A stretch of 56,471 nt of DNA from a virus (IMGVR_UViG_3300027851_000033:1-56471), one strand, 5' to 3'. Counted from the stretch's first letter, positions 51,394-56,471 are shown. The notes: a model not told the origin generated them from the letters alone. Numbers and translations are program-made.

Positions 51394-51647
51394 CGACCGT
51401 GACCAAGGAAATGATCGGCGCTGCGCATGACGTGACGCTCGAAAGTGGCGATGGACGCAGCGCGATGAAAACGTGTGCGACCTGCAACGCCAGCCACAAG
51501 AACACCGTTGAGCGCGTGCTGCGCTGCATGGGTTGCGTGGCAAAGCCGAGCGGCAACAGCAACTGGCGGCCATTGGTGCCTAACGATGCAGTTCAGGGGC
51601 GCGAGGCGGCCTTATCGGCGGAGCGTCCCTCTCGAACGCAGGGTTAG
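51390..51647 (+). CDS. Small Cys-containing protein whose 3' end reads through attC1
   Basis: CATC...CMGC; the C-terminus from PNDAV onward is attC sequence. Confidence 0.5.
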   Translation: MTTVTKEMIGAAHDVTLESGDGRSAMKTCATCNASHKNTVERVLRCMGCVAKPSGNSNWRPLVPNDAVQGREAALSAERPSRTQG

Positions 51648-51649
51648 AA
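51578..51649 (-). mobile_element. attC1 (72 bp)
   Basis: Minus: TTCTAAC-CCTGC-GTTCGAGA...CCTGAAC-TGCATC-GTTAGGC. Confidence 0.85.
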
Positions 51650-51732
51650 ATCATGGCGATAGTGAAAACTGGCGATTGCCCCTATTGCGGAGCGCCGAAC
51701 AAGCGCAAATGTTTTTGTAAACGGAGATCGAG

Positions 51733-51999
51733 ATGCAAGAACTACTGATGATGTACGACCCGGCAACCGGAATGCAAAAGCCCTACCCGAGCCACGCCGA
51801 GCAATGGCGGAAGTTTCACGGCGAGATGGCATGGCTGTTCAATCCTTGGACAGGCACAAGGCGGCACGCTCTTGATGTTGGTAGCGACACCTTTGGGCGT
51901 GGTATTCGCATAGAGGATTGCTTAGAGCGCGCGGCAGTGATGAGCCAAGCGCAGGGATCAAGCCAACAAATACGCGGAGGAATTCTCCGTGACGCATAA
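51733..51999 (+). CDS. Cassette A gene (88 aa)
   Basis: GGAG RBS; TAA stop lies in the next core site. Confidence 0.7.
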   Translation: MQELLMMYDPATGMQKPYPSHAEQWRKFHGEMAWLFNPWTGTRRHALDVGSDTFGRGIRIEDCLERAAVMSQAQGSSQQIRGGILRDA

Positions 52000-52075
52000 C
52001 GTAGAGCTAAGGGGCCGAGCCGCAGGCGAAGGTCCCGTGGAGCGAAGCGGAACGAACTTGAGCGCCGGGTTAGGC
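51994..52075 (-). mobile_element. attC2 (82 bp)
   Basis: Minus: GCCTAAC-CCGGC-GCTCAAGT...CCTTAGC-TCTAC-GTTATGC. Confidence 0.9.
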
Positions 52076-52098
52076 GGCGCAGACATTGGAGACAGCAA

Positions 52099-52350
52099 AT
52101 GAGACAACCTCACGAATTGATGGCAGATGACTATTGCGGACCCTCGAAAGTGATTAACTTGGGCCAGATTCAAAACCGCGATGGGTTCAGATTCATCGGT
52201 ATCGACAAGCACGGCAAAGAGCATTTTTGCATTGTCCGCAAGGGTGACGGCGGATCGTTTTACATGAACAGCAACACGGCGCTGTTTGAGGATTTGTGCG
52301 GATGGCTGCCCGATCCTGATGCGCCGACTTTTGGAGGTAGCGAAACATGA
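52099..52350 (+). CDS. Cassette B gene 1 (83 aa)
   Basis: GGAG RBS. Confidence 0.7.
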   Translation: MRQPHELMADDYCGPSKVINLGQIQNRDGFRFIGIDKHGKEHFCIVRKGDGGSFYMNSNTALFEDLCGWLPDPDAPTFGGSET

Positions 52351-52556
52351 GCATTCACGTTTGCAAATGCACTCACAACGGGCGCGAGGAATACCACCTG
52401 CGTTACCCCGGAATGACCGAAGCGGAGGCGCGAGAACTGGCCGACAGAATCAACGGCGGATGGCTCCGGCCACCAGAGAAGCCGAAGGGCGGATTGGCCG
52501 AAGCGGTCAAGATAGCAAGGGGCGGGGATGCACCGATACCGTTCAAGAGATCGTGA
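52347..52556 (+). CDS. Cassette B gene 2 (69 aa)
   Basis: GGAGG RBS and ATGA overlap. Confidence 0.65.
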   Translation: MSIHVCKCTHNGREEYHLRYPGMTEAEARELADRINGGWLRPPEKPKGGLAEAVKIARGGDAPIPFKRS

Positions 52557-52557
52557 C

Positions 52558-52635
52558 CCCTAACGCCGGAGTTAAGGCGGCTGCCGAAGGCAGTCCGGCG
52601 ACCGAAGGGAGCGAACCTTGAACGACTTGTTATGC
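52558..52635 (-). mobile_element. attC3 (78 bp)
   Basis: Minus: GCATAAC-AAGTC-GTTCAAGG...CCTTAAC-TCCGGC-GTTAGGG. Confidence 0.9.
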
Positions 52636-52755
52636 GCTGACGGTTACTGGTGCGTGGTTTGTGGGCGATACCTGCCCGACGATGACGGGGTGGTTGTTCA
52701 CGACGACGTGCCACACCCGGAGATGACTTTCGACGAAGAGGAAAGGCCGCAATGA
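52618..52755 (+). CDS. Cassette C gene 1 (45 aa, MNDLLCADGYWCVVCGRYLPDDDG...), start inside attC3
   Basis: GGGAG-6nt-TTG inside the attC; CxxC motif; ATGA overlap with the next gene. Confidence 0.5.
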   Translation: MNDLLCADGYWCVVCGRYLPDDDGVVVHDDVPHPEMTFDEEERPQ

Positions 52756-52946
52756 GCGAGAACGGAATTACCCACTACTGCCTCGGCAACGGGGAGTTGA
52801 AGTGCGACGGCTGCGGGCAGGAAAAGAACTGGCAGACGTTGAACCAGATGCCCGACGCGCTGCGGAAGACGCTGCAAGCGCAGGCGCAACGGATCGACGA
52901 CACCGACTGCATCCTGTCCGGGCGCCCGTGGTATGTGGGCGCATAA
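52752..52946 (+). CDS. Cassette C gene 2 (64 aa, Cys-rich)
   Basis: TAA stop lies in the next core site. Confidence 0.65.
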   Translation: MSENGITHYCLGNGELKCDGCGQEKNWQTLNQMPDALRKTLQAQAQRIDDTDCILSGRPWYVGA

Positions 52947-52996
52947 CGCTTGAATTCAGCGGCGGCGAAGCCGTCCGCTGGAATGATTAGTTGGGC
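52941..52996 (-). mobile_element. attC4 (56 bp)
   Basis: Minus: GCCCAAC-TAATC-ATTCCAGC-GGACGGCTTCGCCGCC-GCTGAAT-TCAAGC-GTTATGC. Confidence 0.92.
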
Positions 52997-53021
52997 CTCG
53001 ACGGCCCGGAAAGGAAACGAC

Positions 53022-55074: not shown

Positions 55075-55110
55075 GGCGTCTTACCAGCGCCGACTTTTGA
55101 AAGGGTGGTG

Positions 55111-55248
55111 ATGAAGCCATTTTTGATAGCTGTGCTGTTGTTCACTTCCGGCTTCGCCGTGCTGCTGTTTTTTATACTCTGGTGGGAACGCGGATTTGAT
55201 GGTGCATGGGCGACCTTTGAGCGATTCGCAGAGGATGTATTGAGATGA
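55111..55248 (+). CDS. Cassette I gene (45 aa, single TM)
   Basis: MKPFLIAVLLFTSGFAVLLFFILWW. Confidence 0.6.
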   Translation: MKPFLIAVLLFTSGFAVLLFFILWWERGFDGAWATFERFAEDVLR

Positions 55249-55249
55249 C

Positions 55250-55307
55250 GCCGAACGCCGAAATCACCGGCCGCCGGTAGGCGGTCCGGTGGATTGTGGA
55301 GTTAGGT
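55250..55307 (-). mobile_element. attC10 (58 bp)
   Basis: Minus: ACCTAAC-TCCAC-AATCCACC...GGTGATT-TCGGC-GTTCGGC. Confidence 0.88.
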
Positions 55308-55313
55308 TGCACG

Positions 55314-55367
55314 TTGATTGCTGTAACACAAATAATGCTTGACATGGCTTGATTGATGTATTACAGT
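55314..55367 (+). promoter_or_regulatory. Cassette J sigma70 promoter (TTGACA-17-TACAGT) with direct repeats TTGATTGnTGTAnnACA 35 bp apart
   Basis: -35 at 55339-55344, -10 at 55362-55367; repeats start at 55314 and 55349. Confidence 0.75.
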
Positions 55368-55415
55368 AACAACCATGCGATGCACGTTGCAGCGCAGACA
55401 ACCAAGGAGCCGAAA

Positions 55416-55715
55416 ATGCAAAACCTGACCGCCGAACAAATGATGCAGCGCCCGGAAGTGCTCGCGTACCTGAATGAGTTGGCGGCCGATATTGCGGCAC
55501 ATGGCGGCCTTGAAGGAAAGACGATGGAGCAAGCCGTACAAGAGGCGCACAACCGCCGCCAGTTGTTCGCGGCAGAGATGGTGTCCGGTGAGACGCGCCG
55601 CGCAAAGATGGCACGGAAGGCTATTTGCACGTCTGTTTGGATTGATGTGACCGTGCAGCACTCGAAGGAAAAAATGGTGCAGGCGTGCGAATGGATCGAG
55701 GCGGGGCGCGCATGA
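55416..55715 (+). CDS. Cassette J gene 1 (99 aa)
   Basis: AAGGAG RBS before MQNLTAEQ. Confidence 0.7.
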   Translation: MQNLTAEQMMQRPEVLAYLNELAADIAAHGGLEGKTMEQAVQEAHNRRQLFAAEMVSGETRRAKMARKAICTSVWIDVTVQHSKEKMVQACEWIEAGRA

Positions 55716-55897
55716 AGGCCAAGGCTCCACACGGAGGCCCAGGAAGGGGTCAAGGCCGCAAGCCACTGCCGGACGAGGAGCGCACCGTTGTTGTGACGGT
55801 GCGACTCACCCAAGCGCGGAGGGACAAGCTGCGGCGCTTGGGCGCGCACTGGCTTGCAAAGGCGGTTGATCGGGCGAAAGAGCCTGATGCAACCTAA
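55712..55897 (+). CDS. Cassette J gene 2, RHH-like paralog of 54210..54386
   Basis: HGGPGRGQGRKP...VTVRLT...LRRLG..WL; TAA stop in the core site. Confidence 0.75.
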   Translation: MKAKAPHGGPGRGQGRKPLPDEERTVVVTVRLTQARRDKLRRLGAHWLAKAVDRAKEPDAT

Positions 55898-55960
55898 CGC
55901 ATAGGTAAGCGGCCTTCGCCGGTCTTATGGCGAAGGTCGCGCTTGACCGCCGGGTTGGGC
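55892..55960 (-). mobile_element. attC11 (69 bp)
   Basis: Minus: GCCCAAC-CCGGC-GGTCAAGC...GCTTACC-TATGC-GTTAGGT. Confidence 0.92.
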
Positions 55961-55997
55961 GGCGTATCACCAGCACCGACTTTTGAAAGGGAACGAT

Positions 55998-56312
55998 ATG
56001 GCAACACAGAAGGAAGCAACGCTGCGGCTCTACACGGCCCTGAACGCACCGGCCAAAGCAGGCAGGGTGTGGGTGCAGTACGAGCGCAAAACCATTGACG
56101 CGGCACTGGATGTGCTGAAGCAGTTGATGGTGGCGCAGGGCTACGAATTCCGCCCGGCTGACGCGCTGCCTGCGGAGCGCGAGTGCTGCGGGACTTTCCC
56201 CGGCTCCAAACACCGGAGCACATGCGCGGCCAAGACGCCCAACGCAGAAGTGAGCCGATCTGCGCCGCTTTTGGCGCAGGTCGGCTCGACTGACGGGTTA
56301 GAGCGCGGTTGA
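55998..56312 (+). CDS. Cassette K gene, reads through attC12
   Basis: MATQKEATL...; CCGT...H..TC motif. Confidence 0.65.
   Translation: MATQKEATLRLYTALNAPAKAGRVWVQYERKTIDAALDVLKQLMVAQGYEFRPADALPAERECCGTFPGSKHRSTCAAKTPNAEVSRSAPLLAQVGSTDGLERG
56237..56303 (-). mobile_element. attC12 (67 bp)
   Basis: Minus: CTCTAAC-CCGTC-AGTCGAGC...GCTCACT-TCTGC-GTTGGGC. Confidence 0.92.
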
Positions 56313-56326
56313 CACGGAGAAAGAAC

Positions 56327-56471
56327 ATGACACCGGAAGAAGCTGACAAGGCACAGAACTGGCTCGGCATGGACGGAGCCACGGCTTGGCACTTGATAGA
56401 CCGGCACGCCGATAACTGGAATGAGGTGGGCGAGTTGATGAATTCCTGGCTACGGGCGAACGTCCTTGCAG
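56327..56471 (+). CDS. Cassette L gene, 5' part (MTPEEADKAQNWLGMDG...), continues at position 1
   Basis: GGAG RBS; open to the end of the window. Confidence 0.7.
   Translation, partial: MTPEEADKAQNWLGMDGATAWHLIDRHADNWNEVGELMNSWLRANVLA

Follow-up and report, generated by a model that had tools for sequence, protein, structure and literature searches.

An array of twelve attC sites and small gene cassettes at the end of a temperate phage early operon

Here we describe a dense array of attC sites, the recombination sites of integron gene cassettes, in the virus record IMGVR_UViG_3300027851_000033 of IMG/VR, which was analysed in its entirety (positions 1-56471, 56,471 bases; hereafter the window). 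The record is classed as linear, has a CheckV completeness of 100% and carries the gene set of a temperate phage, with the integrase gene int and the virion genes on the - strand and an early operon on the + strand. This operon (44180-51393, +), which encodes an S24 repressor, RecT, a YqaJ exonuclease, a DUF2303 protein, a single-stranded DNA-binding protein (SSB), a helix-turn-helix (HTH) protein and a protein resembling the C-terminal domain of the RNA polymerase alpha subunit (alpha-CTD), runs directly into the array, where twelve sites lie within 4.7 kb. With at least two clustered attC sites and no integron integrase gene (intI) nearby, the array is a CALIN (cluster of attC sites lacking an integron integrase); the adjacent intI of a complete integron is absent. 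We consider that this is probably a cassette array belonging to a complete, circular temperate phage, situated at the far end of its early operon, and that its cassettes are probably moved by the integron integrase (IntI) of the host.

The twelve attC sites and their cassettes

A preliminary description of the window had proposed twelve imperfect palindromes with the box architecture of attC, bracketing intervals of one to three small open reading frames (ORFs). All twelve were located at the proposed starts (56-82 nt each); the AAC and GTT boxes, the 7-nt and 8-nt L boxes, the extra base and the variable centre are all present, and an ORF listing of the eleven inter-attC intervals (51650-56236, +; 1-3 ORFs each, 31-119 aa) agrees. 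Read on the + strand, the layout is nnnnAAC, G, a 4-5 nt spacer, the 7-nt L box, a variable stem, the 8-nt L box, 5 nt and GTTnnnn. The 8-nt L box is made up of 4 nt, one bulged base and 3 nt, the bulge being G in 11 of the 12 sites, with the first (s1) arranged otherwise. AAC and GTT are invariant in all twelve, the outer box positions pair partly (helix 1: 83% paired), mean column identity is 54%, and the centre varies in both sequence and length.

A custom feature scanner at a threshold of 9, applied to both strands, found 7 sites in the 4.9-kb array and none in the remaining 51.5 kb; Markov shuffles gave a mean of 0.02 sites at the same threshold. Furthermore, a covariance model (R1) trained on nine of the window sites recovered all three that had been held out (s2, E 7e-6; s6, E 6e-3; s3, E 8e-3) and returned nothing below E 0.9 in the rest of the window. 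On 50 kb of plasmid R100, its only match below E 1 was attC(aadA1) of In2 (40.4 bits, E 8e-7). A RecT scan of species-representative genomes led to prophage relatives in genomes titled Dechloromonas, Achromobacter, Parazoarcus, Methylobacter, Rhodoferax, Sideroxydans and others, and IntI above the NCBIfam curated cut-off (TIGR02249) was found in three of five searched bacterial genomes with related RecT prophages. These three are G006 (titled Dechloromonas sp. CZR5), G010 (a Sideroxydans metagenome-assembled genome, MAG) and G009 (a Methylobacter MAG). Beside their intI genes (20 kb each) R1 found 13, 7 and 6 sites, scoring up to 65 bits, with one extra site 19.8 kb further out beside the first of the three genes.

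A second covariance model (R2) was trained solely on 23 bacterial attC sites beside these three intI genes. In the window, R2 detected exactly twelve sites, all on the + strand, at E values from 2.4e-12 to 1.5e-5, the next match having an E of 4.4. The preliminary description had made its case depend on significant matches to the IntegronFinder covariance model; with R2 substituted for that model, every site matches. In order along the + strand, the sites are s1 (51578-51649; R1 71.5 bits; R2 42.6 bits, E 3e-8; recognized also by its fold), s2 (51994-52075; R2 E 1.5e-9), s3 (52558-52635; R2 E 8e-7), s4 (52941-52996; R2 E 2e-8), s5 (53369-53431; R2 E 1.5e-5), s6 (53697-53775; R2 E 1.2e-5), s7 (54381-54449; R2 59.7 bits, E 2.4e-12), s8 (54707-54778; R2 E 1.8e-6), s9 (55004-55074; R2 E 2.8e-6), s10 (55250-55307; R2 E 2.5e-7), s11 (55892-55960; R2 E 3e-10; 77% identical to s7) and s12 (56237-56303; R2 E 1.2e-6). 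The site closest to the phage backbone is s1, and a backbone ORF (51390-51647) extends through it.

The pairing and covariation figures lean toward structure because the alignment was fitted to the structure. In this alignment, 92% of cells are paired; the corresponding values are 77% for shuffles and 24-44% for slid partners. Both sides are changed in 24 cells, compared with 8.8 in shuffles, of which 0 of 500 reach 24, and the covariation score is 0.437, compared with 0.144 in shuffles. Pairing within the L helix amounts to 98.6%, and 4 of the 6 base pairs of this helix show compensatory changes. By eye, window and bacterial sites have the boxes, the bulged G and a CTTTAT-like loop in common. 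An Rfam scan of the window gave no match, which is uninformative, as Rfam holds no attC family. The presence of twelve attC sites is confirmed and, judged by sequence, they are clearly of the same kind as the sites beside real intI genes.

The minus strand had been taken as the attC top strand from the outset, and R1 bears this out: it matches attC(aadA1) of R100 on the strand opposite aadA1. Its matches also lie on the intI-carrying strand in all three bacterial integrons. In a published account, the attC bottom strand is described as folding more stably, as purine- or G-rich and as cut by IntI in the AAC of R' (PMC5027507). In the window, the + strand folds more stably in 11 of 12 sites, with one tie, and GC skew at the sites is positive on it in 12 of 12, which is weak evidence because the whole region has the same skew. 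The + strand is the predicted recombining bottom strand.

Measured from AA/C to AA/C, the cassettes are 246-684 nt long, and in 10 of the 11 intervals an ORF that starts with ATG and has a ribosome-binding site (RBS) lies on the + strand. In the window plus seven phage arrays, 49 of 54 intervals carry such an ORF on the bottom strand and 8 of 54 on the opposite strand; L035, a viral locus with one array on the other strand, keeps the polarity rule. The sedentary chromosomal integrons of G006, G010 and G009 resemble the window in attC type and in having cassettes of a few hundred bases, but differ in that intI lies beside the array and genes are on the top strand with attC downstream, the longest ORF lying opposite the bottom strand in 19 of 21 intervals. 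In place of this canonical layout, with attC at the 3' end of a top-strand gene, the window has bottom-strand genes with attC upstream; its cassettes are therefore reversed relative to those of bacteria. Also, substitutions between homologous cassettes are three-base periodic, clearly so in 5 of the 8 pairs compared, and this codon periodicity argues that selection acts on the cassette ORFs. The matching open frame in the five periodic pairs is uniquely + in three, ambiguous in two and never uniquely -.

One interval of the G006 integron (L133 13034-14119) holds a 361-aa bottom-strand ORF with an RBS, its neighbours being canonical; this is either a cassette in reverse or an insert that is no cassette.

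The last cassette gene, K1, is open at the record end, continues in frame from position 1 and stops just past a lone CTCTAACG box. Its first 48 codons (56327-56471, +) match residues 1-48 of the protein P0008 with 88% identity, and its C-terminal part (1-134, +; window 3-131) matches P0008 residues 51-92 with 95% identity. Since the two halves match a single protein, the record ends join to give a circular genome, with a gap of about 3 nt, and since K1 spans both record ends, the array is internal to the phage genome. The lone box (CTCTAAC plus G, without a hairpin partner; 119-126, +) lies at the end of K1, 22 nt from the stop codon of int, and reads G/TTAGAG on the top (-) strand. Among related viral loci, L018 has a lone box (12286) directly after its last cassette ORF and L020 a similar motif (10816) beyond its last detected site. 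The box may be a simple site, similar to attI or attG, that closes the array.

The top (-) strand reads int, 22 nt, G/TTAGAG, twelve cassettes each followed by its attC, and then the backbone. The topology is that of an integron, but with a phage integrase other than IntI upstream; a layout with a Pc-type promoter is inapplicable to the window, because the genes lie on the other strand. The phage tyrosine integrase (149-1147, -; Pfam Phage_integrase, E 2.5e-15), its 3' end toward the array end, has weak NCBIfam matches, of Xer type only. The array had been placed between xis and int, which holds only after the circular closure that K1 supports; the supposed xis is a small HTH protein (50424-50633, +) whose PHROG matches, excisionase and CII-like, are weak.

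The K1 family (P0001-P0061) combines a conserved 48-aa N-terminal module with many different C-termini (85-426 aa), some with DUF551. All six members inspected end in RSN plus one residue, or carry it if they read into attC; in K1 homologues this ending is the translated attC box. Cassette genes similar to that of P0008 were found in 1 of 401 sampled genomes of the order of G006, namely G060, in a small 4-site array of the same polarity.

Related phages and cassette exchange

We compared 86 viral loci, of which 80 were found via RecT and 6 via the protein of the K9 cassette gene, which lies between s4 and s5. With a limit of E 0.1, R1 gave 81 matches, and 73 of these share the strand of the query gene. 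At least two matches at E up to 0.005 occur in 14 of the 86 loci, with up to 9 sites each; 5 of the 14 are among the 6 loci found via K9, and 9 among the 80 found via RecT. Several phage backbones carry arrays, in every case oriented as the genes are, and the arrays lie directly downstream of RecT, exonuclease and SSB in the window, L017, L020 and L022. Thirteen further relatives found through DUF2303 (L001-L013) gave no R1 match with default filters.

One of these thirteen, the distantly related L008 (DUF2303 43% identical), shows with the custom scanner and by eye one to three attC-like hairpins of the same polarity at 13583-14400, before a gene that looks, by eye, like that of a large serine recombinase; R2 gives weak support, with E 0.021 for one candidate only.

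Individual cassettes turn up in other surroundings. A block of the window (52961-53376) that covers the 3' two-thirds of s4, the leader and K9 in full recurs in L015 with 100% identity, between unrelated flanks, and the identity stops exactly at the AACG box of s5. The K10 unit (s3 plus two ORFs; window 52560-52959) is 90% identical to L017 10517-10921, where it stands after K9, not before, and is followed by an s8-like attC at the place where the window has s4; the s8-like copies in L017 (10219-10286 and 10907-10978) are 88-93% identical. Also, a 98% identical copy of s6 lies at L030 14918-14978. K9 homology in L016-L019 ends at the 5' box, and a cassette family common to L017, L020 and L022 begins at the 5' box and extends through attC into the downstream gene. 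In the K9, K10 and shared-family cases homology runs from attC to gene, which links each gene to its upstream attC, as the bottom-strand assignment predicts.

Contigs from four other runs out of 20 listed (X2, X3, X4 and X6; two freshwater, one aquatic and one groundwater metagenome) add natural variants. The same phage is present in X2 and X3, and the same backbone with other cassette sets in X6 and X4. In X6, the backbone at 46058-48444 has 84 differences, loose ends fall at 53701 and 56241, and a joint connects 54370 to 54711. In X2/X3, one contig leaves the window at 51585, and one contig each matches only 55247-55308 (s10), with different sequence on both sides. The array had been likened to a plug-in platform, an image supported by the L015 block in its other context, the swapped order of K9 and K10 in L017 and the differing sets on one backbone.

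Recombinase, rival explanations and precedents

Each mobile unit starts with the C of an AAC box, ends with the AA of the following one and comprises an attC hairpin, a leader with an RBS and one to three genes, whose stop codon often falls in or just past the next box. Transcripts from the phage early promoter would read through into the cassette genes. Gain, loss and reordering of cassettes would be the work of a host-encoded IntI on bottom strands in their folded form, by attC x attC exchange together with insertion at the simple site. The SOS response is known to induce intI in integrons, and it would also induce this prophage, whose repressor is LexA-like. Such events would most likely coincide with SOS induction or with lytic replication, in which single-stranded phage DNA arises. 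The phage integrases are probably not the cassette recombinase, because the arrays adjoin different integrases or none: the neighbours include a Xer-like Int (window), a P4-type Int (L020), what looks by eye like a serine recombinase (beside the attC-like site or sites of L008), replication genes (L019, where no integrase was seen in 10 kb downstream of the array) and, after the array, host purA (L018).

Several results weigh against this role of a host IntI. No IntI (TIGR02249) was found in the whole 56.5-kb record or in five related viral records searched, four of them incomplete (22-72%); in the incomplete G060, none was found at E 1e-30, a level at which control genomes were also silent, so that this is not evidence of absence. 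The window cassette proteins had no match within 100 kb around the three bacterial integrons, and a phage could not obtain reversed cassettes just by borrowing ordinary ones from its host. The independence of R2 is incomplete, because its training sites were selected with R1. Finally, the preliminary description had expected relatives to differ by cassette reordering, with breakpoints at the core sites, and this came out mixed: cassettes are reordered and breakpoints fall mostly at the AAC box, but L020 shares K9 sequence with the window starting exactly at the 3' GTT box, a joint in X4 connects 51645 to 53009 with a short side of 21 nt, and the identical L015 block starts about 15 nt inside s4, not at the cut. 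Because some breakpoints lie off the AAC box, the arrays must also be shaped by homologous exchange among attC sites that resemble one another, which could explain part of the shuffling.

Carried further, this line of thought makes the attC-shaped hairpins hotspots for recombination by the phage RecT, exonuclease and SSB, or for replication slippage, with no need of IntI. Module shuffling through short homology at repeated stem-loops has been proposed for T4-like phages. In the window and three loci the arrays do follow closely on RecT, exonuclease and SSB, although this linkage is partly a sampling effect, because 80 of the 86 loci were found via RecT. The silence of the phage records searched for IntI and the breakpoints inside attC or at the 3' box also fit, and attC sites within and between arrays are 77-98% alike, enough for homologous exchange. 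Homology-driven exchange, however, has no need of an L helix that is preserved by covariation despite sequence change. The sites keep the asymmetry relevant to IntI (the bulge in one arm, the invariant AAC, the box spacing) and match intI-adjacent sites at up to 65 bits, and the sharpest boundary, that of L015, falls exactly at the AACG box. We regard hotspots acting alone as unlikely.

Lower still is the likelihood of a dead relic, a piece of some host's chromosomal integron that an ancestor acquired once, for example through imprecise excision, and that is now only drifting. Vibrio phages carrying segments of a host chromosomal integron are described by Qi et al. (PMC9892861), and the attC type matches the chromosomal integrons of the Dechloromonas-, Sideroxydans- and Methylobacter-titled genomes. 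A relic would not be expected to have gene polarity opposite to that of the three host integrons examined, cassette content that varies on one backbone, an identical cassette in another context (L015), codon-periodic substitution indicating selection, or counterparts in several backbones that are always co-oriented with the genes. That the array is host DNA, the flank of a chromosomal integron or CALIN wrongly retained at a provirus end, is very improbable: the linear class, the array reaching the record end and the host flank (purA) in L018 speak for it, but K1 continues in frame from end to start with both parts matching P0008 (1-48, 51-92), CheckV completeness is 100% and the same layout recurs in 14 of the 86 related viral loci.

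Host IntI acting on a phage-borne array remains our preferred explanation. More tentatively, and with the balance of our judgement slightly against it, temperate phages of freshwater and groundwater hosts resembling Betaproteobacteria might keep a reversed-cassette pool of their own, shuffled between phages by SOS-induced host IntI.

Clusters of attC in phages have a published precedent. Qi et al. (2023, Front Microbiol) found 3 complete integrons, one In0 and 17 CALINs in 10,705 phage genomes, and 5 of the 6 phage attC sites tested recombined with IntI1 (PMC9892861). As far as the available text of that paper goes, its phages resemble the window in having attC sites and cassettes without a nearby intI, with small unknown genes and methyltransferases (PMC9892861); methylases also lie in or beside the arrays of L018 and L022. 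The examples in that text, however, have 2-3 attC sites, those tested being from virulent phages, and gene orientation is called typical for TJE1 and PH101 (PMC9892861), whereas the window has twelve homogeneous sites in a complete temperate phage with all genes on the bottom strand; unlike those examples, it also has a lone simple site at one end and relatives that share and reorder cassettes. The arrangement had first been thought undescribed, which does not hold for phage attC clusters as such, published in 2023 (PMC9892861); long arrays and reversed polarity were not met in the literature searched. Within that search we found no long homogeneous array in a complete temperate phage, no systematic reversed polarity and no cassette sharing among a phage group; Supplementary Table S1 of PMC9892861 (the 17 CALINs) lay outside it and may hold larger arrays.

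A route by which such an array could be seeded is suggested by attC x attG insertion, which places cassettes outside integrons in bacterial chromosomes and gives rise to CALINs and SALINs (single attC sites lacking an integron integrase), according to the part of that work available (10.1101/2022.09.11.507474). The same route could seed a phage array at a simple GTT-containing site, although phage arrays and reversed cassettes do not appear in that part (10.1101/2022.09.11.507474). The window array is bounded by GCCTAA at one end and the lone box at the other, which if joined would rebuild one GTTAGGC-type site.

Integrons are usually viewed as a bacterial adaptation device, and recent work has considered cassettes as anti-phage defences. 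The present case shows another side of them: long, actively varying attC arrays occupy the early accessory region of a complete temperate phage and of no fewer than 14 related viral loci. In lambdoid phages, the "b region" between int/xis and the recombination genes holds small dispensable early accessory genes that are not known to be bracketed by attC; the window has the same genomic position and kind of gene, with attC bracketing in addition. If host IntI shuffles the cassettes, phages gain site-specific, modular exchange of small early genes, the mosaicism of early regions would be partly explained, and the genes would be plausible candidates for host takeover or anti-defence. If the pool exists, the integron would be a gene-exchange platform common to bacteria and phages, and reversed polarity would mark phage-specific cassettes expressed from early transcription instead of Pc. 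Reversed polarity separates phage from bacterial cassettes and bears on how cassettes arise. Additionally, attC models could be used to pick accessory gene modules from viral metagenomes.

Cassette genes and other features of the phage genome

The cassette genes presumably serve early accessory or host-interaction functions. None of the 18 array ORFs (17 cassette ORFs plus ORF 51390-51647) matches a Pfam family, and the sole PHROG match in the array is that of 53861-54058 to phrog_34498, a family of unknown function (E 1.7e-25). The K9 protein is 100% conserved in L015. Its assignment to Ead_Ea22 was rejected, the ESM Atlas cluster standing at 0.81, below the counting level, and the other matches being hypothetical proteins. 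A PADLOC match of one cassette gene to DruA (E 0.004 over 41 residues), weak and partial, was taken as chance.

Cassettes 53703-54386 and 55256-55897 are paralogous and multi-gene, and in each a promoter-like site is overlapped by an inverted repeat; their last genes are 45% identical and start with the motif GGPGRGQGRKP. The predicted sigma-70-like promoters, which are consensus matches only, lie at 53801-53829 (+; TTGACA, 17 nt, TACACT) and 55339-55367 (+; TTGACA, 17 nt, TACAGT). Counts in the promoter and terminator scan were not above those in shuffles, and no convincing + strand terminator was found within the array. Possibly the two cassettes are self-regulated modules expressed in the lysogen.

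The early operon begins with the S24 LexA-like repressor (44180-44911, +). At its other end, the last gene before the array (50812-51393, +) encodes an early protein whose C-terminal part resembles the alpha-CTD (Pfam E 2e-6). About 143 nt of this gene (50906-51048) appear to be duplicated within the array in X6, after the last cassette gene, and a contig joint in that run returns from 56471 to 50906. Megablast of window 44000-56471 against the phage collection gave no match.

Within the virion gene block, next to int, lies a single ORF of 4615 aa (1424-15271, -). A near-palindromic motif of about 18 nt (TGCCACGCATGGCGCGA-like) occurs in five copies (15298-15325, 19403-19420, 28066-28093, 29474-29501 and 36862-36889), directly upstream on the - strand of late gene blocks including that of the giant ORF; these are possibly late promoters or an activator site. 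Tandem and dispersed short repeats (TATCTG units and GTTCAACGTTCGTT-like units) occupy 42241-42509, inside a DUF1376 gene (41801-42670, -), and look like replication-origin iterons. Finally, repeats with a spacing of 69 nt (23 codons) lie at 30089-30653, within a 556-aa ORF (29770-31440, -).

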